DNA of 12,372 nucleotides from Planctomycetes bacterium RIFCSPLOWO2_12_38_17 (GCA_001830285.1 MHYY01000153.1:1-12372), one strand, 5' to 3'. Shown: positions 606 to 10,419, counted from the first letter of the stretch. Program-made: numbers and translations. The notes: generated from the letters alone by a model not told the origin.

Positions 606-1241
606 TTATACACCCCTAGTATCTGGTTCCCAGATATATTTATGTAGCTGAAGTTGGAATCTTACATTAAGATCGTCTTCCAGAATCCATTTAACCACAT
701 TCTTTGGATAGGTTGTACCAAATACAGTTCCTATCAAGACGTTTGTAATTTCAGATAAATTATATTTCTTTATTATATCTTTTGCCCAGTCATAATCGTT
801 TCTTGAATTTAATACAAATTTTACTTCATCAATTTTTGAAAGGTACTCAATATTCTTCCAGTTCATGAGGTGTGTCATGTAACTGTCTGGGCATTTTATA
901 TCCATTATTTTAATAGCTTCTTTTGAAATTATGCTGATATCGCAACTCCCATTTGTCTCAACCATAACTGTATGTTTTTTATTTATAAGTTCAGTAATTA
1001 AATAGGGCGTTTCAATGTTAAATAAAGGCTCACCGCCAGTTACACAAACTAATTTTGACCTTAGCGTATCAACGCTTTCAATAATTGAATTAATTGACAT
1101 TTCTTTCCCATCTTCAAAGGCATAAGTAGTATCACAGTAACTACAGCGCAAGTTACAGCCAGTTATACGAATAAAAATGCATGGTAAGCCCGCATATGAA
1201 GTTTCACCCTGAATACTCTTAAAGATTTCATTAATTTTCAT
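606..1241 (-). CDS. queE: 7-carboxy-7-deazaguanine synthase QueE (radical SAM)
   Basis: The 211-aa ORF has the N-terminus MKINEIFKSIQGETSYAGLPCIFIRITGCNLRCSYCDT. This is the QueE-type IFxSIQGE signature followed by the CxxxCxxC radical SAM cluster motif. Its size and its position next to queC both fit. Confidence 0.93.
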   Translation of the reverse strand: MKINEIFKSIQGETSYAGLPCIFIRITGCNLRCSYCDTTYAFEDGKEMSINSIIESVDTLRSKLVCVTGGEPLFNIETPYLITELINKKHTVMVETNGSCDISIISKEAIKIMDIKCPDSYMTHLMNWKNIEYLSKIDEVKFVLNSRNDYDWAKDIIKKYNLSEITNVLIGTVFGTTYPKNVVKWILEDDLNVRFQLQLHKYIWEPDTRGV

Positions 1242-1467: not shown

Positions 1468-2070
1468 ATGTCAACAATTATAAAAGATGATATTTTGCAA
1501 AAAAAGAGCAAGGAAACAGGTGGCAAAGAAAAAGTTAATAAAATAATGGATACAATTGTTGAATCATCATTGCATCCGACTATTGTTAAACCTGAAAAAC
1601 AAGCACCATCTGGACCAGCCAAACCCTCAAAAATAATTGCTAAACAAAATATTTTTAGCGGTGTAGTATTAATAGAGGGAGAAAATGCTGAAGACCTTAA
1701 TGATATAAAAGGAAGGCTTATAAATGAGCTAAAACCTTCGAATGAGATAGAGTCAATCATAGTAGACCGTATTATTTCTAATATATGGAGATTAAAGAGA
1801 TGTCTGAATATTGAGAGTCAGATTCTTGAGTATGAAACATCTTGTATTCAGGAATACAAACAAGGACTCTTTAGAGTCAAAAAAAGGACAGAAAAGGAAT
1901 TGAATCAATTAAAAGCCTTAAAGATTGCCGAAAACAGAAACAAGATTAGGGAATTAATAAATTATGAAACAATATTGGAAGAGCAAACATTTAAGGCTTT
2001 AAATGAGTTAAACAAAGTCAGGAGTCAAGATTCGAAACAAGAAAATAAGGCAAAAAAAACGAAGAAATAA
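1468..2070 (+). CDS. Hypothetical protein. It is Lys/Glu-rich and predicted to be helical or coiled-coil in its C-terminal half. Function unknown.
   Basis: This is a 200-codon open frame in DNA where stop codons are frequent. A strong Shine-Dalgarno sequence, AAGGAGG (1454-1460), lies 7 nt upstream of the ATG at 1468. The protein has a Pro/Lys-rich N-terminal segment, a central ...ENAEDLNDIKGRLINELKPSNEIESIIVDRIISNIWRLKR... block and a Lys-rich tail. I recognise no catalytic motif. Confidence 0.7.
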   Translation: MSTIIKDDILQKKSKETGGKEKVNKIMDTIVESSLHPTIVKPEKQAPSGPAKPSKIIAKQNIFSGVVLIEGENAEDLNDIKGRLINELKPSNEIESIIVDRIISNIWRLKRCLNIESQILEYETSCIQEYKQGLFRVKKRTEKELNQLKALKIAENRNKIRELINYETILEEQTFKALNELNKVRSQDSKQENKAKKTKK

Positions 2071-2274: not shown

Positions 2275-2303
2275 TTGACAATATAAAATATGTCTGCTAA
2301 TAT
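2275..2303 (+). promoter_or_regulatory. Sigma70-type promoter candidate for the ACP/lipid operon
   Basis: TTGACA (2275-2280), a 17-nt spacer, then TAATAT (2298-2303). A TG at 2295-2296 sits one base before the -10 hexamer, giving an extended -10 of TGcTAATAT. The upstream flank is A/T-rich and UP-element-like. The site lies about 78 nt upstream of the ACP start. The AT-rich background raises the chance of a false positive. Confidence 0.5.
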
Positions 2304-2380
2304 CTTCAACTTATGATATAAATGAGCTAATTTAAGTATTCATTTTTCAAATTTTGCAAGTTATAAAAAGGAGGCAAATT

Positions 2381-2650
2381 TTGAACGCAGGAGATGTTGA
2401 AAAAGGTGTCACGGCAATTGTTGCCGAAGTAACTGAGTTAGATGAAAAAGAAATCTGGGAAAAGCGGGATGCAAATTTCTTTAAAGACCTTGAGATAGAT
2501 TCACTTTTAGCACTTGAGATACTTGCACTTATTGAAAAGAAATTTAAAATACAAATCCCTGAAGAAAAACTTGTTGATATTACATCTTTAAGCGCTACAA
2601 TTGGTTTGACAAAGACTGTGTTAGCCGAGAGTGGCAAACTCACTTCCTAA
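2381..2650 (+). CDS. Acyl carrier protein, a dedicated cluster-specific ACP
   Basis: The phosphopantetheine attachment motif DLEIDSLLALE is present, with the Ser codon at 2501-2503, and the helical ACP pattern ...ILALIEKKFKIQIPEEKL... follows. The ORF track starts at a TTG at 2354. I prefer the in-frame TTG at 2381 because AAAGGAGG (2367-2374) sits 6 nt upstream of it. This gives an 89-aa protein of typical ACP size. Confidence 0.88.
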   Translation: MNAGDVEKGVTAIVAEVTELDEKEIWEKRDANFFKDLEIDSLLALEILALIEKKFKIQIPEEKLVDITSLSATIGLTKTVLAESGKLTS

Positions 2651-2801: not shown

Positions 2802-3251
2802 ATGATACTATTTGAGGAAATTCGGAACCTACTACCTCAAAAATATCCTTTTTTGTTCATTGATAGGGTTGTTGAGTTTGAAGAAGGAAAGAAAATTGTT
2901 TGTGTGAAGAATGTCTCTGGAAACGAACCTGTTTTTGTTGGCCACTTTCCTGATTTTGCAATCATGCCGGGTGTTTTAATAATAGAAGCAATGGCACAGG
3001 CATCAATAATATTATTTAAAAAGAGTCTGGCTATTAAACATGGTGAGAACACAGTTTTTTTGCTTGCTTCTGTTAGTAATGCAAGATTCACGAAACCAGT
3101 TTTCCCAGGCGACCAGCTTTTAATTGAAATTATTGTTGAAAAGATTGTTTCAAAGGGAGCTATAGTTCACGCAACAGTAAATGTTGGCGAAAAAACAGTT
3201 GCAAAAGCTAATTTAACTTTCGGTATTGCTGAAAAAGGCACATTAATATAG
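2802..3251 (+). CDS. fabZ: 3-hydroxyacyl-ACP dehydratase, FabZ family (hot-dog fold)
   Basis: The 149-aa protein begins [57 protein letters not shown]. This aligns almost residue for residue with the E. coli FabZ core. The catalytic His (GHFP, codon 2943-2945) and Glu (IEAMAQ) are both present. GAGG (2787-2790) lies upstream of the ATG. Confidence 0.95.
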
Positions 3252-3255
3252 TTCT

Positions 3256-4473
3256 ATGAATAGACGCGTAGTAATAACAGGCGTGGGGATGATAACCCCT
3301 ATAGGTTCTGGTAAAGATGTCTTCTGGAAATCGCTTATCGCCGGAGAATCCGGGGTTGATAATGTAACATGTATTGATACATCTGAATATAAAGTTCATA
3401 AGGGATGTGAGGTTAAGAACTTTAATTATTCAAATTATATCAAGAACGGCGTACTTAAGAAGATCGGTAAAGGCTCACAGTTTGCTATAGCAGCTACAAA
3501 GCTTGCTCTGGATGATGCGAGAATTGATTTTAATAATATAGATTTGGAGAGAATTGGGGTTTCTATGGGAACAACTGCAGGTGAAATACAAATTCTTGAA
3601 AAAGTCAACTATATACGCCATAAAGAAGGAGAAGATAATGTAGACCCTGATTTATTTTTAATGCATCCGTGCAACAACATCCCTGCTAACATTGCAATCG
3701 AATTTGGTTTTAAAGGACCAAATACCATTATTCCTACTGCATGTGCAGCTGGTAATTATGCGATTGGATATGCTTATGACCTTATCAAATTTGGCAGAGT
3801 GGACTTGATGGTTGTTGGCGGCTCAGATCCGTTTTCTAAAGTTGCATACACAGGTTTTGCAAGGTTAGGAGCAATCGCACCTGAAATATGCCAGCCGTTC
3901 GATAAGAATAGAAAAGGAATGATGGTTGGTGAAGGCGCTGGGATGCTTCTTCTTGAGTCACTTGAACATGCACAAAAAAGAGGTGCTAACATTTATGCAG
4001 AAATTATAGGTTATGGTCTTAGTTGTGATGCATATCATATTACCATTCCGCATCCGGACGGCGAGGGTGTGGTTTCCGCTATGAAGAAAGCACTTCAAAG
4101 TGCAAACTTAAAACCTGAAGATGCTCAATATATTAGCGCTCATGGCACAGGAACTCCTTCAAATGATAAGGCAGAAACAATTTCAATAAAAAAAGTATTT
4201 GGTGACAAACCAAAGAATCTTGCCATTAGTTCAATAAAATCTATGATTGGGCATACTATGGGTGCGGCAAGCGCAATTGAGGCTATTACATGCGCGTTAG
4301 CTGTACAGAATGATATAATACCACCAACAATTAATTATGAGACGCCCGATCCCGAGTGCGACTTGGATTATGTTCCTAATGTAATGCGGAAGCAGAAGGT
4401 AAATATCGCACTAAACAATGCCCATGCATTTGGTGGGAACAATAGTTGTTTGGTCGTGAAAAAATTTACATAA
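3256..4473 (+). CDS. fabF: Beta-ketoacyl-ACP synthase, FabF/KAS II-like, catalytically intact (KS-alpha-like subunit)
   Basis: The 405-aa protein has a complete Cys-His-His triad. The Cys lies in [12 protein letters not shown] (codon 3742-3744), the first His in [14 protein letters not shown] and the second His in [15 protein letters not shown]. The C-terminus [14 protein letters not shown] is typical. The gene starts 4 nt after the fabZ stop. Confidence 0.93.
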
Positions 4474-4503
4474 TAAGAAATTTACTGCTTGTTAGAGTAT
4501 ATT

Positions 4504-5745
4504 ATGGAAAAAACAAGAATTGTTGTTACAGGTATTTCAGTCATCTCCCCTGTTGGGACAGGGAAAGATGAATTTTGGAAAAACTTGACAAATGGTGTAT
4601 CAGGTATAAAGCCTGTTACTCTGTTTGATGTGAGTAAGTTTAACAGTAAACAAGCCGGTGAGATAACTGATTTTGATGCAAAAGTGTATTTAGGACCAAA
4701 GGGCATTCGCCACATTGACAGGACTTCCCTGCTTGTATCTTCAGGGACTGTGCTTGCTTTCAGAGACGCCAACATTGAAAGCAATACTTATAGCGAAGAC
4801 GAATTAGGAATTGTTGTTGGCTCAACTTATGGGAGTATCGATAGTATTAGTTCGTTTGATTTTCAGTCTTTGCGTGAAGGTCCCAATTATGTTAATCCAA
4901 TGGATTTCCCCAATACAGTGTTGAATGCGCCTGCTAGCCGTGCCTCCATTTTCTGTAAAGCCAAAGGTCTTAACACTACGATTTCAAATGGTGTAACAAG
5001 CAGTATTGACGCTATTATTTATGCATCCGATTTTTTACGTATGGGTCGAGCAAGGGCAGTAGTCGCTGGTGGAGTACATGGATTAACCCATGATATATTC
5101 TGGGGTGCGCATAATTCAAAAATTTTAGCAGGAAGCAGGAATGGAACGCTGGAAATTAGCTCGCCTTTTGATAAAAGAAGAAACGGAATGATTATCGGTG
5201 AGGCTTCAGCACTTGTTTTCCTTGAGACACTGGAAGATGCACTTAAGAGAAATGCTCATATATATACAGAGATTAAAGGTTACGGAACTGCATTTGATCC
5301 AAAGATGTCTACAACAAAAAATTATCAGATTGAAGGCAACAAGCGTGCTATTATAGATGCAATAAAAAATGCCAATTTAACAGTACACGATATTTCCTGC
5401 ATTTATGCAAATGCATATTCAGGCGTCTATGGCGATATTATGGAAACGCTTGCTATTAAAGATGCATTTGGTATGAAATCAAAACTAATACCTGTAACAG
5501 CTATCAAGTCAATGACTGGGGAGTGTTTTGATGCATCTGGTGCTTTACAAACAATAGCCGCCATCATGTCAATTAGAACAAATACTATTCCACCCACAAT
5601 TAACTATAAGGAACCTGACCCCGAGTGTGATTTAGATTATGTACCTAATAATAGCAGGGTTGTTCCTGTTAAAAACGTGCTCATAAATTCATTTTCACGC
5701 CTTGGCAACAGTTCTGCCTTAATAATTTCAAAATACAAACAATAG
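4504..5745 (+). CDS. Ketosynthase paralogue lacking the catalytic triad. It is chain-length-factor / KS-beta-like.
   Basis: The protein has the thiolase/KS fold throughout: VVTGISVISPVGTGKDEFW at the N-terminus and INSFSRLGNSSALII at the C-terminus. The active-site Cys position reads TTISNGVTSSIDA (Val codon 4993-4995). His1 reads ANAYSGVYGD (Tyr) and His2 reads KSMTGECFDASGA (Glu). The ORF track starts at a TTG at 4489. I prefer the ATG at 4504 (MEKTRIVVTG), which matches the KS N-terminus, although neither start has a clear RBS. Confidence 0.85.
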   Translation: MEKTRIVVTGISVISPVGTGKDEFWKNLTNGVSGIKPVTLFDVSKFNSKQAGEITDFDAKVYLGPKGIRHIDRTSLLVSSGTVLAFRDANIESNTYSEDELGIVVGSTYGSIDSISSFDFQSLREGPNYVNPMDFPNTVLNAPASRASIFCKAKGLNTTISNGVTSSIDAIIYASDFLRMGRARAVVAGGVHGLTHDIFWGAHNSKILAGSRNGTLEISSPFDKRRNGMIIGEASALVFLETLEDALKRNAHIYTEIKGYGTAFDPKMSTTKNYQIEGNKRAIIDAIKNANLTVHDISCIYANAYSGVYGDIMETLAIKDAFGMKSKLIPVTAIKSMTGECFDASGALQTIAAIMSIRTNTIPPTINYKEPDPECDLDYVPNNSRVVPVKNVLINSFSRLGNSSALIISKYKQ

Positions 5746-5748
5746 TAC

Positions 5749-7203
5749 ATGTTATCATCAGAAGTAGGCATACAATCCACAAAGAGAAATAAAATATACT
5801 CACATTACGACGTTATTATAATTGGCGCAGGTATAGCAGGTCTTGTTTGTGGTGCATTTCTCGCCAGAAGTGGAAAGAAAGTACTCGTAGTTGAACAACA
5901 TTTTATTCCAGGTGGTTACTGCACATCTTTTAAAAGGAAGGGATTTAACTTTGATGCGGCAGTTCATCATATAGGAGGTTGCGGCAAGTGGAGCATTGTT
6001 GGTCGTTGTTTTAAAACACTCGGAATTGAGATGGATTTTTATCACCTCGATCCAATGGATAATTTAATCTTTCCAAGCTTCAATATAGAAATCCCCGCTG
6101 ATTTAGAGAAATACATATCACAGTTACAAAATCGCTATCCTTCTGAAAAAGAAAGTCTTAAGAATTTTTTTCAGGATTACGTGAAGTTATATCGGGCTAC
6201 GTTCAACATTGAAAAGAGTCAAATCATTGATAAATACAAAGACCAGACATACGCTGAGATGTTAAATAGTTTTTTTGGGAATGAAGAACTAAAGATGGTG
6301 CTTTCTGGTCAGTGGGGTTATATAGGTCTCCCCCCTACTCAAGCGTCTGCCGTCGGTATGTGTCAAATGATGATTAATTATTTAAAGGACGGTGCATTTT
6401 TTCCGGCTGGTGGCACTCAAGAGTTTACGAATGCAATTTTTAAGAAATTTATTGATTTCGGTGGACATGTCATGTTATCATCCGAAGCAAAAGAAATTCT
6501 TTTAGATAATAAAAGTGTAAAAGGTGTTAAATTACACGACGGCAAAGAGATACCTGCTAGCACAGTTGTTTCAAATATAGATGCATATCAAACTTTTTTT
6601 TGCTTACTTGATGGTAATATAGATGCAACCTTCCTTGAAAAAATTGGAAAAATGAAGGAAAGTTGTTCTTTTTCCCTTCTGTATCTTGGTTTAGGAGAAG
6701 AACCGGATTTAAGTAAATTAATTAGGGGTTTTTATCATACATCTATAGATACAGATGATATGGATAAAGAGTGGATGTATATTTCCGTCCCAACAAAGAT
6801 TTATCCAGGGTTGGCTCCAAAAAATAAACAAATAATATCAGTAGTTGTTTATTTTAAAGATGAATTGTATAATAATATTAGCAATTGGAACTCTTTTAAA
6901 GAAGAAATGACGACGAGAACTATTAGTCGTCTCGAATCATATGTTCCAAATATAAAAAATTATATCGAGGTTAAAGAAGCTGCTACGCCAAAAACTCTTG
7001 AGCGATATACTTTAAACAAGAATGGTGCCGCATATGGTTGGGCAGTTAGTGTTAATCAAATATGGGAAAACAGGTTACCCCAGAAAACGCCAATTAATAA
7101 TTTATATTTAACAGGCCACTGGACAAGACCCGGTCCTGGAATTTGTGCCGTTGTCTCTTCTGGCTGGGGTGTCTCAAATTTAATAATGGAGAATTGGAGG
7201 TAA
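5749..7203 (+). CDS. FAD-dependent oxidoreductase, phytoene desaturase (CrtI/CrtISO/RetSat-like) family
   Basis: The 484-aa protein has an N-terminal dinucleotide-binding fold, YDVIIIGAGIAGLVCGAFLARSGKKVLVVEQHFIPGGYCTSF, with GxGxxG at 5824-5841. The C-terminal segment NLYLTGHWTRPGPGICAVVSSG is the type of C-terminal FAD motif found in the CrtI family. The gene starts 3 nt after the preceding stop. I cannot tell from the sequence whether it acts as a desaturase, isomerase or saturase. Confidence 0.82.
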   Translation: MLSSEVGIQSTKRNKIYSHYDVIIIGAGIAGLVCGAFLARSGKKVLVVEQHFIPGGYCTSFKRKGFNFDAAVHHIGGCGKWSIVGRCFKTLGIEMDFYHLDPMDNLIFPSFNIEIPADLEKYISQLQNRYPSEKESLKNFFQDYVKLYRATFNIEKSQIIDKYKDQTYAEMLNSFFGNEELKMVLSGQWGYIGLPPTQASAVGMCQMMINYLKDGAFFPAGGTQEFTNAIFKKFIDFGGHVMLSSEAKEILLDNKSVKGVKLHDGKEIPASTVVSNIDAYQTFFCLLDGNIDATFLEKIGKMKESCSFSLLYLGLGEEPDLSKLIRGFYHTSIDTDDMDKEWMYISVPTKIYPGLAPKNKQIISVVVYFKDELYNNISNWNSFKEEMTTRTISRLESYVPNIKNYIEVKEAATPKTLERYTLNKNGAAYGWAVSVNQIWENRLPQKTPINNLYLTGHWTRPGPGICAVVSSGWGVSNLIMENWR

Positions 7204-7212
7204 ATAATAATT

Positions 7213-8673
7213 ATGAAAAGAAAAATGATGTTAATTAACCCGCACAACCCTGGTAGATGTGGGGAAGAGAGTATTACAGTAATTGTACAGATGCCTCTGA
7301 ATCTTGCTTATATTGCCGCCCTTACACCTGGTGATTGGGAATTTGATGTCATTGATGAAAACATTGATCTCGCAATGGATAATAATGGTGAAATTACCTT
7401 TGCCCCTGTTGATCTAGTATGTATTACTGCGGTTACCTATCAATCTCCTAGGGCATATAAAATTGCCACTGCATGCAGAAAGAGGGGTATGCCTGTAATT
7501 ATGGGTGGTATACATACCTCTGTAATGACAGAGGAGGCTGTAAATTATGCCGATGCAGTTTTTGTAGGCGAGGCAGAGGATGTATGGCCGCAAGTAATTA
7601 GGGACTTTGAAGCAGGTAAACTGAAAAAGGTTTATAATGGTGGTTTACCCCCCCTATCCTTGATGAAAAAAGTATATCCTAATCGTGAGATCATGAAAAG
7701 GAAATACAATTATAAATTCTCGTCCATCGTAACAACTAAAGGATGTCCAAATTACTGTGACTTCTGCAGCGTTCCAACATTCCAGGGTAGAAAATTCAGG
7801 GAGAGACCATATGAAGATGTGCTTGATGAAATGGCCGCGACGGATTATAAGGGACTGATGCTTGCAGAGGATAATTTCTACGGACACGGAAAAAAGTCAA
7901 ACGAAAGGGCAAGAAATCTTTTTAAAGGGATGGTGGAAAAGGGTATTAAAAAAGATTGGCTGGGATTTACAGCCCTGAACATATCTCAGGATAAAGAAAC
8001 TTTGGATTACATGGCTAAAAGTGGTTGTTTTGGAATGCTTATCGGTATTGAATCAACCAATGAAGCTGTTTTACAGAAGATGAATAAACGTGTAAACCTG
8101 AAATTGGGTACAGATAGTTATTTTGACTGCATCCAAAAGATTCACGACGCAGGATTAGTTGTTTGGGGCTCAGTCGTATTTGGCGCCGATGGTGATGATA
8201 AAGATTCCTTTAAGAGGATGACAGACTTTATACTTGAAAATAATATTGATATTTTGACATTTGGAATAAATTGCCCCTTTCCCAAGACACAATTATATGC
8301 AAGATTGGATTCCGAAAAGAGGATCTTCAGGAAGAATTATCCGGAGGATTGGCAATACTATGATACAGCGCATGTCGTTCACAGATTTGTTGACATGACA
8401 CTCGAAAATTTCATTGATGGTATGCAGTATGTATACGACCATATTTATGCAGGCGATAACTTAAGAACCCGTTTCAGGAACTCAATCAAGACTACAAACA
8501 ACCCAAGAAACTCCATGTTTGCATTCAGGGTAGGCTCTGATTGGAAACAGGTATTTGAGCAGGTATTGCAGAACTTGAAAGAATTATATAATTCTGGTGA
8601 TTATTATGTTGACTGCTATAAGTCAAAAGCTGTAACAGTTGAAAAACCTATCTTGGAAACTGCCACAACATAG
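7213..8673 (+). CDS. Radical SAM enzyme with an N-terminal cobalamin (B12)-binding domain (class B radical SAM)
   Basis: The 486-aa protein has a CxxxCxxC motif in TTKGCPNYCDFCSVP, with Cys codons at 7744-7746, 7756-7758 and 7765-7767. A Rossmann-like B12-binding-type N-terminal domain precedes it (...DLVCITAVTYQSPRAYKIATACRKRGMPVIMGGIHTS...AVFVGEAEDVWPQVI...). TGGAGG (7195-7200) lies upstream of the ATG. The gene starts 9 nt after the preceding stop. Confidence 0.9.
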   Translation: MKRKMMLINPHNPGRCGEESITVIVQMPLNLAYIAALTPGDWEFDVIDENIDLAMDNNGEITFAPVDLVCITAVTYQSPRAYKIATACRKRGMPVIMGGIHTSVMTEEAVNYADAVFVGEAEDVWPQVIRDFEAGKLKKVYNGGLPPLSLMKKVYPNREIMKRKYNYKFSSIVTTKGCPNYCDFCSVPTFQGRKFRERPYEDVLDEMAATDYKGLMLAEDNFYGHGKKSNERARNLFKGMVEKGIKKDWLGFTALNISQDKETLDYMAKSGCFGMLIGIESTNEAVLQKMNKRVNLKLGTDSYFDCIQKIHDAGLVVWGSVVFGADGDDKDSFKRMTDFILENNIDILTFGINCPFPKTQLYARLDSEKRIFRKNYPEDWQYYDTAHVVHRFVDMTLENFIDGMQYVYDHIYAGDNLRTRFRNSIKTTNNPRNSMFAFRVGSDWKQVFEQVLQNLKELYNSGDYYVDCYKSKAVTVEKPILETATT

Positions 8674-8705: not shown

Positions 8706-8748
8706 AAAGGCACATCAACAGTTTAATTGATGTACCTTTCTGTATTTT
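8706..8748 (+). terminator. Rho-independent-type terminator ending the lipid operon
   Basis: AAAGGCACATCAA (8706-8718), an 8-nt loop, then TTGATGTACCTTT (8727-8739). This forms a 13-bp stem with one C/A mismatch. A T-rich run, CTGTATTTT, follows. The structure begins 33 nt after the radical SAM gene stop. Confidence 0.6.
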
Positions 8749-8850: not shown

Positions 8851-8979
8851 ATGATTGGCAAATTATTATCTTTATCAATGGAAAAATCAATTATTCCTGA
8901 CATCAGTCCAAAGGCAATTTTGATTATTACAATTGCACTTATTTTTGTTATATTGTTCACCTGGAAAAAGGAGGGATAA
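8851..8979 (+). CDS. Putative 42-aa small membrane protein. This micro-ORF is not in the supplied ORF track.
   Basis: The ATG at 8851 follows GGGAGG (8838-8843) after a 7-nt spacer. The translation is MIGKLLSLSMEKSIIPDISPKAILIITIALIFVILFTWKKEG*. It contains one clear hydrophobic helix (AILIITIALIFVILFTW) followed by KK. Its TAA stop (8977-8979) directly abuts the TTG start of lpd at 8980, and the lpd Shine-Dalgarno sequence lies inside its last codons. Confidence 0.4.
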   Translation: MIGKLLSLSMEKSIIPDISPKAILIITIALIFVILFTWKKEG

Positions 8980-10419
8980 TTGCCTGATAGGAACTCAACC
9001 TTTGACCTTGCTATCATTGGTGGAGGTCCAGGTGGTTATGTAGCTGCAATAAAAGCTGCCCAATCAGGATTAAAAACTGCTCTTGTTGAAAAGAATAAAG
9101 TCGGCGGTACATGTTTGCATCAGGGTTGTATCCCAACAAAGGCACTTCTTTACTCTGCCGATCTTTATAAAAAGTTTCAAAGGGCAAATGAATATGGAAT
9201 TGCAACTGATAAATTAAGCTTTGATTATTCACAGTTTCATCGTCGTAAAGAAACCGTTGTTAAGCGCTTATTTCAAGGGGTTCAATTTTTACTAAAAAAG
9301 AACGGTGTCGAGGTTTTCGAAGGAGAAGGGTGTCTTACATCTCCAAATAACATATCTATACGAAAAAGTAAAACAGAAATCGACAAGATAAATGCTAAAT
9401 ATATTATATTTGCAACTGGGTCTATTCCTCTCATACCTATTTCAATTCCTTACGATAAGAAATATATACTTACAAGCGATGATATTTTAGTACTTGAAAA
9501 AATACCGAAGTCCATCATAATTGCAGGCGGTGGTGCCGTAGGGATAGAATTTGCACATCTATTTAATATACTCGGGGCAAAAGTTACAATCATAGAACTT
9601 CTGGACGATATCCTCCCGTCCGAAGATAAAGACATCAGTACCACGTTGAGAAAGATATTTATTAAAAGAGGTATAGATGTCTTCACAGGTACCTCTCTTG
9701 AAAAAGTTGAAATTAATAATTGTGCTAATGTTACAATAAAGAGAAAAATATCCCTACCCCCTATCGGCACCGAGAGTTTTACTTATCAAAATGAGTTTTT
9801 AAAGGTAGATTGCTTGCTCCTCGCATTAGGCAGAACACCCGCATTAAGTAATATTGGCTTAGAAAGTTTATATTTGAATTTTAAAGGAAATAATCTTCAA
9901 ATTAATGAAGTAATGGAAACAAGTCAAAAAGGGCTTTTTGCAATCGGAGACATTACAGGCCCCCCTCTCCTTGCCCATAAAGCCTCAAAACAAGGCTTAA
10001 TTGCTGTAGATTATATTTCAGGAAAGAAACCAATTCCGTTAAATTATCAGAATATCCCTAGGGTAACATACTGTTCTCCACAAGTTGCCAGTATTGGGGT
10101 CACACAGGAAGAGGCAGAAAAGAAAAGATACAAAATAAAAACCGGAAGATTCCCTTTTATAGCTAATAGTAAGGCAATTATAGATGGGGATTATGAAGAT
10201 GGATTTGTGAAAATCATCGCAGATGAAAAACACGGTGAGATTTTAGGACTTCATGCAATAGGACCAAATGTAGGTGAGTTCATATGGGGTATATCTCTTA
10301 CTACTGCACTTGAAGGAACGGCTCATGAACTATCAAATAATATATTTCCCCACCCTACTCTGTCTGAATCTATTTTAGAAGCAGCCCTTGCTGTGGTTGG
10401 TAAACCAATCCATAATTAA
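8980..10419 (+). CDS. lpdA: Dihydrolipoyl (dihydrolipoamide) dehydrogenase, the E3 component
   Basis: The 479-aa protein has the FAD fold FDLAIIGGGPGGYVAAIKAAQSG and the redox-active disulfide GGTCLHQGCIPTKALL. It also has the NAD fold IIAGGGAVGIEFAHLF, the GDITGPPLLAHKA motif and the C-terminal HPTLSE catalytic His-Glu motif. It uses a TTG start at 8980, with AAGGAGGG (8968-8975) just upstream. Confidence 0.93.
   Translation: MPDRNSTFDLAIIGGGPGGYVAAIKAAQSGLKTALVEKNKVGGTCLHQGCIPTKALLYSADLYKKFQRANEYGIATDKLSFDYSQFHRRKETVVKRLFQGVQFLLKKNGVEVFEGEGCLTSPNNISIRKSKTEIDKINAKYIIFATGSIPLIPISIPYDKKYILTSDDILVLEKIPKSIIIAGGGAVGIEFAHLFNILGAKVTIIELLDDILPSEDKDISTTLRKIFIKRGIDVFTGTSLEKVEINNCANVTIKRKISLPPIGTESFTYQNEFLKVDCLLLALGRTPALSNIGLESLYLNFKGNNLQINEVMETSQKGLFAIGDITGPPLLAHKASKQGLIAVDYISGKKPIPLNYQNIPRVTYCSPQVASIGVTQEEAEKKRYKIKTGRFPFIANSKAIIDGDYEDGFVKIIADEKHGEILGLHAIGPNVGEFIWGISLTTALEGTAHELSNNIFPHPTLSESILEAALAVVGKPIHN

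Follow-up and report, generated by a model that had tools for sequence, protein, structure and literature searches.

Ladderanes are fused cyclobutane lipids that were discovered in 2002 and whose biosynthesis has been a puzzle ever since; their fused cyclobutanes have, to our knowledge, no other biological precedent. The field's main candidate for the key ladderane steps is a pair of enzymes, a CrtI-like flavoenzyme and a B12-binding radical SAM enzyme (rSAM); the anammox rSAM has so far defied production in other hosts, and genetic tools for anammox bacteria are lacking. In Kuenenia these enzymes are KustE3607 and KustE3608, the last two products of "Cluster I" (KustE3603-3608), which has been put forward for ladderane synthesis since 2009 (Rattray 2009, PMC2649909), is reported to be highly expressed in anammox bacteria and has been claimed to be exclusive to ladderane producers (PMC10139942; 2026 preprint). 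According to the literature, direct evidence for a link between Cluster I and ladderanes is absent, no polyunsaturated or cyclopropyl fatty acid has been found in anammox bacteria, E. coli expressing Cluster I showed no new fatty acids, and isotope labelling is at odds with simple ladderane schemes.

The stretch of DNA analysed here (the window, 12,372 nucleotides from Planctomycetes bacterium RIFCSPLOWO2_12_38_17) carries the following features:

2275 to 2303, plus strand: promoter-like site TTGACA-17-TAATAT with an upstream TG, a consensus match and candidate operon promoter
2354 to 2650, plus strand: acyl carrier protein (ACP), amxACP ortholog, PF00550 at 51.5 bits, with a DSL phosphopantetheine attachment site
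2802 to 3251, plus strand: FabZ-type 3-hydroxyacyl-ACP dehydratase (DH), amxFabZ ortholog, NF000582 at 152.8 bits (cutoff 113)
3256 to 4473, plus strand: ketosynthase (KS) with an intact Cys-His-His triad, predicted active, amxFabF2 ortholog
4489 to 5745, plus strand: dead KS, chain-length-factor-like partner (CLF), amxFabFmut ortholog, triad changed to Val/Met/Asn
5749 to 7203, plus strand: CrtI-superfamily FAD flavoenzyme, 484 aa, "PDH-like", KustE3607 ortholog
7213 to 8673, plus strand: radical SAM enzyme with an N-terminal B12-binding domain, 486 aa, class B fold, KustE3608 ortholog
8706 to 8739, no strand assigned: 14-bp inverted repeat, a terminator-like hairpin 33 nt past the rSAM stop

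The six genes lie on one strand in the order ACP, FabZ, KS, dead KS, flavoenzyme, rSAM. The coordinates of the last two genes and the 3-nt and 9-nt gaps before them, as given in an initial annotation of the sequence, proved exact on an ORF check: TAC is all that separates the end of the dead-KS ORF at 5745 from the flavoenzyme ATG at 5749, and the flavoenzyme stop codon TAA occupies 7201-7203 and is followed by the rSAM ATG at 7213, which is preceded by GGAGG 12 nt upstream. The promoter-like site stands directly before the ACP gene and is the strongest in the region. The hairpin, placed on the minus strand in the scan, also has a T-rich tail on the plus strand and likely marks the end of the operon. 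Among the loci with at least 1.5 kb of DNA downstream (n = 38), the flavoenzyme gene is directly followed by that of the rSAM in 36, over a GC range of 35-72% and down to a flavoenzyme identity to the window of about 41% (L084); this is far more than chance would give. Together, the short intergenic gaps, the one flanking hairpin and a gene order conserved over large evolutionary distances support the prediction, already made in the initial annotation, that the tail pair is co-expressed with the ACP/KS genes.

Judged by gene content and identity, the operon is the ortholog of Cluster I in another Brocadiaceae lineage, and its tail pair has already been described, as KustE3607/3608 of that putative ladderane cluster. 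Against its Brocadia counterpart the rSAM shows 91% identity, and against that of K. stuttgartiensis (P0008) 85%, at 100% coverage. For the flavoenzyme, identities to Brocadiaceae/Kuenenia proteins are 71-77%, the figure of 71% being measured to the P0179 cluster, which includes K. stuttgartiensis entries, and it clusters at 90% identity or more with a protein of Ca. Wujingus californicus, family Brocadiaceae, which makes a Wujingus-like anammox bacterium the probable source of the window. The two Kuenenia tail-pair proteins have consecutive accession numbers. The rSAM is among the best-conserved genes of the cassette (83%, against 66% for the flavoenzyme), and the ACP is 76-94% identical across 21 complete anammox-type cassettes. 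The cassette is kept in every anammox family sampled, basal ones included, and the anammox rSAMs form a separate clade in the rSAM tree.

The same cassette occurs outside the anammox bacteria. All six genes are present in MAG contigs of soil Acidobacteria (GC 0.60) and in a non-anammox Planctomycetota contig (GC 0.70), and a Myxococcota-labelled contig carries ACP-DH-KS-CLF-flavoenzyme and then ends. The non-anammox cassettes add a FabG-type ketoreductase (KR, 288.8 bits) and a FabH (353.5 bits), and some of them lie within larger clusters that also encode SRPBCC cyclase-like, MIase-like, ECH and AMP-ligase proteins and further rSAMs. An rSAM-KS-CLF module directly follows the cassette in non-anammox loci such as L152, L093 and L084 and forms a second locus in Kuenenia. 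The dehydratases of related loci match the ApeI-like Pfam family. These cassettes contradict the published claim of exclusivity and, since their hosts are not known to make ladderanes, the chemistry of the cassette cannot be both ladderane-specific and sufficient.

A rather unlikely reading to be weighed here is that Cluster I has nothing to do with ladderane rings and makes some other polyketide-like lipid or metabolite in anammox bacteria and several non-anammox phyla alike, with the ladderane machinery located elsewhere. It fits the complete cassettes in high-GC Acidobacteriota and Planctomycetota, the contig-truncated one in Myxococcota and the larger clusters around some of them, the case in the literature leans partly on the exclusivity that these loci contradict, and no experiment in the literature links Cluster I to ladderanes. 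However, the cassette is universal among the sampled anammox families and reported as highly expressed there, the anammox versions form their own rSAM clade, no rival ladderane candidate has so far been convincing, and a precursor chemistry shared between phyla would be compatible with a ladderane role.

The synthase part of the operon points to short, unsaturated intermediates. The KS keeps its Cys/His/His triad, while the adjacent paralog, 36% identical to it, has Val/Met/Asn in the same columns and is for that reason predicted to be catalytically dead; this pattern of an active KS with a triad-less paralog is present in every related locus checked. According to the literature, Val stands at the Cys position of the dead KS in most anammox species, and orthologs of the dead KS heterodimerise with the KS (bioRxiv 10.64898/2026.05.19.726425). 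A preference for short C6-C8 substrates has been reported for the orthologous FabZ (PMC10139942) and KS/CLF. No enoyl reductase (ER) was ever found in the cassettes, including the non-anammox ones with their own KR and FabH. Because the module has no ER, cycles of KS/CLF, KR and FabZ would produce thioesters of short, conjugated enoyl or polyenoyl chains, the KR being presumably a FabG from elsewhere in anammox genomes and one encoded in cis in the non-anammox versions.

This bears on the "type a" route of the literature, to which the first of three hypotheses in the initial annotation corresponds: the flavoenzyme would be a true desaturase that puts several double bonds into a long, saturated acyl-ACP from ordinary FAS, and the rSAM would then trigger a radical polycyclisation to a ladderane. 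The route is a long-standing proposal (PMC2649909, PMC4790861), rSAM enzymes can initiate radical chemistry anaerobically, and the flavoenzyme does align over its full length with CrtI and CrtD-type desaturases. We nevertheless regard it as unlikely: long chains do not suit the orthologous FabZ and KS/CLF, which prefer C6-C8, the literature records no polyunsaturated fatty acids at all, either from anammox bacteria or from E. coli in which the genes were expressed, polycyclisation has been computed to be unfavourable, and the first desaturation of a saturated chain would, following Rattray et al., be hard for a CrtI-type enzyme. Sequential desaturation is moreover not needed, as ER-less KS/CLF-DH(-KR) systems, to which the cassette belongs, yield polyenes directly and would do so without a desaturase. 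All three hypotheses, this one included, are essentially those of the literature, where cyclopropane and methyl variants related to the third, an rSAM methyltransferase, have also been published (PMC2649909, PMC10139942, PMC13459092).

Residues 29-479 of the flavoenzyme match NAD_binding_8 and Amino_oxidase, the FAD Rossmann motif GAGIAGL occupies residues 26-32, and the alignment with CrtI (4DGK) covers residues 23-482 with E = 1.5e-22; the predicted structure has a pLDDT of 47. In the curated-family profile search, the protein scored far below the cutoff of every carotenoid and HpnE model, the best match being the carotenoid isomerase TIGR02730 (170.8, cutoff 586.9), with TIGR02734 crtI_fam at 160.8 (cutoff 238.1). 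TIGR02730 is also the top model for 18 of 18 family members and for all 37 wider relatives, again below cutoff in each case and by a small margin over crtI_fam. The flavoenzyme belongs to an uncharacterised CrtI-superfamily clade that is marginally closest to the carotenoid isomerase model and comprises at least 150 clusters (50% identity) with scores above 240 bits. More distant CrtI-like relatives (31-34%) likewise lie downstream of KS/CLF pairs, so the association is a recurrent pattern and not a one-off. The initial annotation had implied an acyl chain as an unusual class of substrate for this family; its acyl nature is supported.

The database names on orthologs ("phytoene dehydrogenase", "prolycopene isomerase", "diapophytoene desaturase") would suggest an ordinary carotenoid or hopanoid enzyme (CrtI/CrtN/CrtD/CrtISO/HpnE) that happens to lie beside a fatty-acid operon. 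This is effectively refuted. The scores are below cutoff throughout, the gene keeps its place between those of the CLF and the rSAM in the 36 of 38 loci mentioned above, Kuste3607 cannot substitute for CrtI and gives no lycopene in an E. coli strain (PMC4790861), and domain and curated-family profile searches found no crtB/crtE-type genes in the window, in agreement with the initial annotation. The missed cutoffs and the failure of Kuste3607 to replace CrtI support a non-carotenoid acyl substrate, probably ACP-bound, as had been proposed.

In the rSAM, the B12-binding domain PF02310 (38.7 bits, cutoff 32.1) and the Radical_SAM domain PF04055 (54.5 bits) are both recognised, and C178-x3-C182-x2-C185 is invariant in 31 homologs. 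The nearest folds to its AlphaFold model (pLDDT 89.7) are AprD4 (best), TsrM, MgmA, TokK, CysS and OxsB, none of them more than 19% identical; AprD4 shares the B12-binding domain but does not use cobalamin. Of these, CysS and TokK are known with pantetheinylated ligands, so there is precedent in class B for substrates tethered to a carrier. The best-scoring curated HMMs include PhpK, HpnR and MgmA, all far below their cutoffs, the BchE, OxsB and HpnJ models reach 65-84 bits where 481-578 would be required, and the non-methylases HpnJ, BchE, AprD4 and OxsB match as well as the methylases do. The class B enzymes characterised so far are mostly methyltransferases. Known non-methylating Cbl-rSAM enzymes catalyse ring formation or skeleton rearrangement (PMC13598231). 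Since the fold and HMM neighbours comprise both kinds, our assignment of the rSAM as a cyclase is a preference. In the same curated search the rSAM reached only 88.4 bits with TIGR04072 rSAM_ladder_B12, "lipid biosynthesis B12/radical SAM protein" (cutoff 360), a model for another rSAM family, presumably the one found in the other Kuenenia cluster, which Desulfotalea has as well. Pairing of an rSAM with KS/CLF also occurs without the flavoenzyme, as in L083 and loci of the kuste2803-2805 type, the paralog kuste2803 being 53% identical to the window rSAM. No orthology of the flavoenzyme to a carotenoid enzyme, or of the rSAM to a characterised enzyme unrelated to lipids, was found. We agree with the initial annotation that sequence does not choose among its three hypotheses, and fold and context do no better.

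The second and third of these can be combined into a self-contained synthase, in which the flavoenzyme supplies the missing enoyl/dienoyl reduction and the rSAM is a cobalamin-dependent methyltransferase that installs methyl branches during chain growth, possibly as cyclopropane precursors. The non-anammox cassette consists of FabH, ACP, KS/CLF, FabG, FabZ and exactly these two enzymes, so that the flavoenzyme occupies the place where an ER would complete the cycle. FadH/OYE-type dienoyl-reductase-like genes are found with related modules, methylation is the chemistry of most characterised class B enzymes, and PhpK, HpnR and MgmA among the HMMs and TsrM, TokK and CysS among the structures are compatible with it. 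Jaw5 offers a precedent for iterative rSAM action alongside chain extension (PMC13459092). On the other hand, a FadH-like gene and the flavoenzyme occur together in L086, so they are not simple substitutes, and the methylase HMM scores are far under their cutoffs and equalled by non-methylases. We also know of no CrtI-family enoyl-ACP reductase, and of no matching methylated lipid common to anammox bacteria, Acidobacteriota and Planctomycetota. We hold this combined scheme to be a tentative possibility.

The reading we prefer, with a probability of about 0.5, is that the KustE3607/3608 orthologs form one unit with amxACP, amxFabZ and KS/CLF and tailor ACP-carried enoyl or polyenoyl chains, the flavoenzyme by isomerisation or saturation and the rSAM by C-C bond formation. 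We infer that the substrate stays ACP-tethered and that the flavoenzyme acts first, isomerising (E/Z) or regiospecifically saturating C=C bonds that are already present instead of desaturating a saturated chain; this isomerase/saturase role is proposed from the HMM preference of roughly 10 bits and from context. The rSAM would next form a C-C bond by radical chemistry on the same tethered chain, ring closure or rearrangement being favoured over methyl transfer. In anammox bacteria, the output would most likely be the ladderane moiety or a precursor of it, made together with the second rSAM-KS-CLF module encoded elsewhere. A more far-reaching and doubtful reading is that the pair is the catalytic core of a two-module, ER-less KS/CLF system that builds cyclobutanes stepwise on ACP-tethered (poly)enoyls, and that does so also in uncultured Acidobacteriota, high-GC Planctomycetota and possibly Myxococcota, yielding ladderane-like or other strained-ring lipids. 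If this were true, ladderanes would be undermined as an exclusive anammox biomarker, and non-anammox enzymes would be on offer for pathway reconstitution.

The window itself is one more ortholog, and the comparative result is more useful. Non-exclusivity removes one argument for the ladderane assignment. The modules scattered in Kuenenia are contiguous in some other phyla, with their own KR and FabH and never an ER, which defines a minimal gene set to reconstitute, and the survey supplies many divergent high-GC homologs that may express better.

Among known systems, CrtI, CrtISO and CrtD share full-length, fold-level homology and the FAD Rossmann motif with the flavoenzyme, which differs in its KS/CLF rather than crt context, its scores below the family cutoffs and an ortholog without phytoene desaturase activity. 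BchE, OxsB and HpnJ have the N-terminal B12 domain and radical SAM core of the window rSAM, to which methylases are similarly (weakly) alike, but act on unrelated substrates and show at most 19% structural identity. The highly reducing type II PKS systems (aryl polyene Ape, ishigamide Iga, cinnamoyl-lipid) use, like the cassette, a discrete ACP, KS/CLF, a FabG-like KR and a FabZ/ApeI-like DH without an ER; their products are pigments or peptide acyl caps. The anammox KS/CLF and FabZ prefer short chains. We know of no B12-rSAM partner in these systems. The cinnamoyl route does place isomerase, electrocyclisation and desaturation steps on a tethered polyene (PMC6510318). In jawsamycin biosynthesis, the radical SAM cyclopropanase Jaw5 acts on enoyl thioesters of the ER-less iterative PKS Jaw4 and forms contiguous small rings during chain growth (PMC13459092). 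Jaw5, however, does not have the B12-domain class B architecture, Jaw4 is a type I PKS, there is no flavoenzyme partner, and the rings are cyclopropanes with the extra carbon from SAM. The Kuenenia module kuste2802-2805 (AcpS, B12-rSAM, KS, dead KS) has its own KS/CLF and the paralogous rSAM (CAJ73554.1, P0108 cluster), but places the rSAM first in gene order and has no ACP, FabZ or flavoenzyme. The closest system is Kuenenia Cluster I (Rattray 2009; Javidpour 2016; Dietl 2023; Granatino 2026 preprint), from which the window differs in its lower GC (35%) and its flanks (QueE, Lpd, alpha-glucan phosphorylase) and in nothing essential, the order of the six genes being identical and the Cys-to-Val change in the CLF the same.

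On one strand of the window (12,372 bp, 35% GC) lies a series of ORFs, and a CrtI-superfamily flavoenzyme and a B12-domain radical SAM enzyme (rSAM) are encoded by the last two genes of its six-gene cassette, behind an ACP, a FabZ-type dehydratase (DH), a KS and a dead KS (CLF). The features of the cassette are as follows.

2275-2303, promoter-like site, the best in the region, upstream of the ACP gene
2354-2650, ACP
2802-3251, FabZ
3256-4473, KS, with Cys/His/His kept
4489-5745, KS paralog, with Val/Met/Asn in the Cys/His/His columns
5749-7203, flavoenzyme, 484 aa
7213-8673, B12-domain radical SAM enzyme, 486 aa
8706-8739, 14-bp hairpin, 3' of the rSAM gene

The spacings reported in the initial annotation, 3 nt between the stop codon of the KS paralog and the flavoenzyme ATG and 9 nt from the flavoenzyme stop to the rSAM ATG, are exact, and its description of the paralog as a dead KS agrees with the three substituted residues. 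A GGAGG sequence lies 12 nt upstream of the rSAM ATG. As also stated there, crtB/crtE-type genes are absent from the window, and an Rfam search of the window returned no riboswitch or other RNA.

The neighbors of the cassette in the window are QueE, an unassigned 200-aa ORF, dihydrolipoyl dehydrogenase and alpha-glucan phosphorylase. The QueE-like radical SAM gene (606-1241, minus strand) is under both QueE equivalog cutoffs (256 vs 300 and 213 vs 260). The Lys/Glu-rich 200-aa ORF (1468-2070, plus strand), without a match in Pfam and NCBIfam, is flanked by this divergent gene and by the promoter-like region of the ACP operon. On the other side, a hydrophobic ORF of 42 codons (8851-8979, plus strand; MIGKLLSLSMEKSIIPDISPKAILIITIALIFVILFTWKKEG) is preceded by a Shine-Dalgarno-like aaggaaagggagg, and its stop codon directly precedes the TTG with which the dihydrolipoyl dehydrogenase gene starts at 8980. 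The GC content of the window is below the 38-52% of the other collected anammox-type cassettes; within the operon, it is higher in the rSAM gene (0.39-0.40) than in the flavoenzyme gene (0.34-0.37).

The six genes are arranged as in Kuenenia "Cluster I" (KustE3603-3608), where amxACP, amxFabZ, amxFabF2 and amxFabFmut are followed by a phytoene-dehydrogenase-like protein and a cobalamin radical SAM enzyme (bioRxiv 10.64898/2026.05.19.726425). For the window rSAM, identity is 91% with proteins of Ca. Brocadia and 85% with that of K. stuttgartiensis. The flavoenzyme shares 99% identity with a protein from a JGI metagenome and 71-77% with those of Brocadiaceae/Kuenenia; the Kuenenia orthologs of the two enzymes have consecutive accession numbers. 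A 68,119-bp JGI contig (L133) matches the window with 100% identity across all six genes, and the flavoenzyme's cluster at 90% identity or more includes a Rifle-groundwater Planctomycetes MAG protein and Ca. Wujingus californicus (Brocadiaceae). Cluster I was proposed for ladderane synthesis by Rattray et al. 2009 (PMC2649909) and was expressed in E. coli by Javidpour et al. with no lipid phenotype (PMC4790861). Its ACP, FabZ and KS/CLF pair have been structurally characterized, and FabZ and KS/CLF were found to prefer C6-C8 chains (PMC10139942; bioRxiv 10.64898/2026.05.19.726425); in the 2026 papers its rSAM is still listed as a proposed "ladderane synthase". Given this orthology, gene order and published history, the pair is a rediscovery of an already known candidate system, to which the window contributes one further ortholog. 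The three hypotheses of the initial annotation (desaturation followed by rSAM cyclization, a saturase role for the flavoenzyme, and an rSAM methyltransferase) likewise largely restate published proposals.

About 70 related loci were collected and annotated against the proteins of the window and of one acidobacterial locus. The rSAM gene is directly 3' of the flavoenzyme gene in 36 of the 38 loci whose downstream DNA extends for 1.5 kb or more. Of the two exceptions, one is a fragmentary gene; the sole true exception is a Desulfobacterales MAG locus (L086, 7089-15256, GCA_013375395.1) without an rSAM gene, which encodes in order a FadH/OYE-like reductase, a flavodoxin-like protein, a CrtI-like flavoenzyme 38% identical to that of the window, KR, ACP, DH, KS and CLF. 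The pair is co-organized and co-inherited with the ACP, the KS/CLF pair and the FabZ-type dehydratase and, in complete clusters, also with FabG and FabH, an enoyl reductase being absent. Mean identity to the window over 21 complete anammox-type cassettes (ACP 84%, rSAM 83%, KS 81%, DH 75%, CLF 73%, flavoenzyme 66%) places the rSAM among the most constrained genes of the cassette and the flavoenzyme as the least constrained.

The cluster has been claimed to be exclusive to ladderane producers (PMC10139942; bioRxiv 10.64898/2026.05.19.726425), which is contradicted by cassettes outside anammox bacteria, assigned as such from MAG labels and base composition. A complete cassette is found on Acidobacteria MAG contigs (GC 0.60; identity to the window of 58% for ACP, 51% for DH, 57% for KS, 38% for CLF, 45% for the flavoenzyme and 58% for rSAM), on a 436-kb Planctomycetota contig (GC 0.70) and on more high-GC metagenome contigs, and a Myxococcota-labeled assembly carries ACP-DH-KS-CLF-flavoenzyme running to the contig end. 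The next-best relatives of these flavoenzymes are anammox proteins. In a neighbor-joining tree, the non-anammox cassette rSAMs fall within a family well apart from other B12-rSAMs, which among the matches listed are at most 38% identical. A genome-contig profile search with the rSAM alignment had at least four family members among the matches listed, Kuenenia not being one of them, and it offers no basis for presence or absence of the cassette in cultured species. No earlier report of the cassette in non-anammox bacteria was found in the literature searched; generic antiSMASH "ladderane-type" calls in other phyla had been noted. With this distribution, the possibility that the product of Cluster I is some other lipid gains weight.

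The non-anammox cassettes additionally encode a KR of the FabG type (288.8 bits) and, as a divergent member of its family, FabH (353.5 bits), and none of them encodes an enoyl reductase (ER). Beside non-anammox and basal-Brocadiales cassettes (L084, 5718-6260 and 13026-13412; L085, 5146-5598 and 18554-19216; and L121), small proteins of the muconolactone-isomerase fold, SRPBCC (Polyketide_cyc2) proteins and a ferredoxin are found repeatedly; they may have accessory roles, as cyclases or chaperones and as electron donors.

Anammox genomes also contain a paralogous module, AcpS-rSAM-KS-dead KS (kuste2802-2805), with an rSAM 53% identical to that of the window. In several non-anammox clusters (L084, L092-L094, L152), the cassette is immediately followed by another rSAM and another KS/CLF, and this contiguity suggests one two-module pathway that is split over two loci in anammox bacteria. 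The large cluster of L152 (2545-20683, GCA_964649065.1, GC 0.69), seen also in L092, has four B12-domain radical SAM genes, two of them divergent and beside an enoyl-CoA hydratase and two in tandem 3' of the flavoenzyme, together with a second KS/CLF, KR, a metallo-beta-lactamase-fold protein, inositol-1-phosphate synthase and a DVU_1553-like AMP ligase. Its two divergent rSAMs are not members of TIGR04072 (56 bits), which we take to be the rSAM family of the other Kuenenia cluster, and we therefore do not claim that such clusters unify all Kuenenia loci. The comparison removes the exclusivity argument and adds a self-contained gene set from FabH to KR, fused in some lineages to the second module, with divergent homologs as a pool for biochemical work.

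The flavoenzyme contains the FAD Rossmann motif and can be aligned over its full length with CrtI (4DGK; E=1.5e-22 alone, 160 bits with the family profile) and with the CrtD-type desaturase 4REP. No curated family cutoff is reached (carotenoid isomerase 170.8 against 586.9, crtI_fam 160.8 against 238.1, CrtO 133.6 against 1000, CrtD 132.6 against 549.7), and the clear orthology to a carotenoid enzyme that was looked for is absent. A carotenoid or hopanoid role was rejected on these scores and on the failure of kuste3607, the Kuenenia flavoenzyme, to replace CrtI for lycopene synthesis (PMC4790861). The carotenoid isomerase model ranks first, by a small margin over crtI_fam, for each of the 18 family members and 37 wider relatives scanned. 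The AlphaFold model of the flavoenzyme, from 21 sequences, has a pLDDT of 47. A sharp boundary in a word-index search had pointed to a small, closed family; this idea was dropped, since an exhaustive search gave 1430 representatives at E<=1e-30 (the best 150 of the 1430 scoring 240-544 bits) in a continuum of uncharacterized relatives at 31-40% identity. CrtI-like relatives at 31-34% identity to the cassette enzymes also occur in another architecture, on high-GC metagenome contigs with ACP, KS, dead KS, an HMG-CoA-reductase-like protein, the flavoenzyme and an acyltransferase (L149, 4050-13622; L150, 4314-11679), both loci being without an rSAM. KS/CLF systems served by a CrtI-type enzyme are therefore seen repeatedly and form an uncharacterized theme. 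No characterized CrtI-like enzyme of a type II PKS polyene pathway was found in the literature searched; a phytoene-dehydrogenase-like enzyme that may act in cinnamoyl-lipid biosynthesis was not counted as evidence.

Three points weaken the classical route, in which the flavoenzyme desaturates a chain and the rSAM starts a cascade on it: the partner enzymes FabZ and KS/CLF prefer short chains, PUFAs are absent from anammox bacteria and from expression strains, and an ER-less module requires no desaturase. The alternative of a flavoenzyme supplying enoyl reduction and an rSAM that methylates is attractive because in the self-contained non-anammox cassettes the flavoenzyme sits exactly where the ER is missing; we know, however, of no CrtI-type enoyl-ACP reductase, and the Desulfobacterales locus has a FadH-like gene alongside its flavoenzyme. 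A 669-aa gene of this FadH/OYE-like (2,4-dienoyl-reductase-type) kind also follows AcpS-rSAM-KS-dead KS in Ca. Subterrananammoxibius californiae (L004, 9467-16877) and is absent after the paralogous module of a Kuenenia-type locus (L147, 7578-11960); it is a weak hint of dienoyl chemistry.

In the rSAM, CxxxCxxC is invariant with no further invariant cysteine, and the B12-binding domain is above the Pfam threshold. Its best curated matches are all far under cutoff (TIGR04072 88 against 360, HpnJ 84 against 578, PhpK 82 against 600, HpnR 80 against 650, MgmA-type 69 against 360, BchE 65 against 481), and orthology to a characterized enzyme unrelated to lipids is not seen. The predicted structure (pLDDT 89.7) retrieved AprD4, TsrM, MgmA, TokK, CysS and OxsB from the PDB with Foldseek, none of them above 19% identity. 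The rSAM is as close to methylases as it is to ring-forming or rearranging enzymes, and function is discriminated by neither sequence nor fold, which extends to the model the earlier statement that the sequence alone cannot choose among the three hypotheses.

ER-less type II systems (aryl polyene, ishigamide, cinnamoyl lipids) release conjugated polyenoyl-ACPs. In the cinnamoyl route, an isomerase, pericyclic ring closure and desaturation are then needed (PMC6510318). Our preferred reading, with a probability of about 0.5, is that both enzymes tailor an enoyl or polyenoyl chain, probably a short one, on amxACP, the flavoenzyme adjusting C=C bonds and the rSAM forming C-C bonds. The flavoenzyme would act by E/Z isomerization or selective saturation, in line with its marginal resemblance to carotenoid isomerase and with the FadH-like genes in related modules; within this reading a non-desaturase role is slightly favored. 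For the rSAM, presumed to work by radical chemistry, ring formation or rearrangement has not quite an even chance, and methyl transfer is only slightly less likely. It may act iteratively with elongation, as suggested by its tight linkage to KS/CLF pairs and by tandem duplication. The closest mechanistic precedent for an rSAM coupled to elongation is Jaw5 of jawsamycin (PMC13459092).
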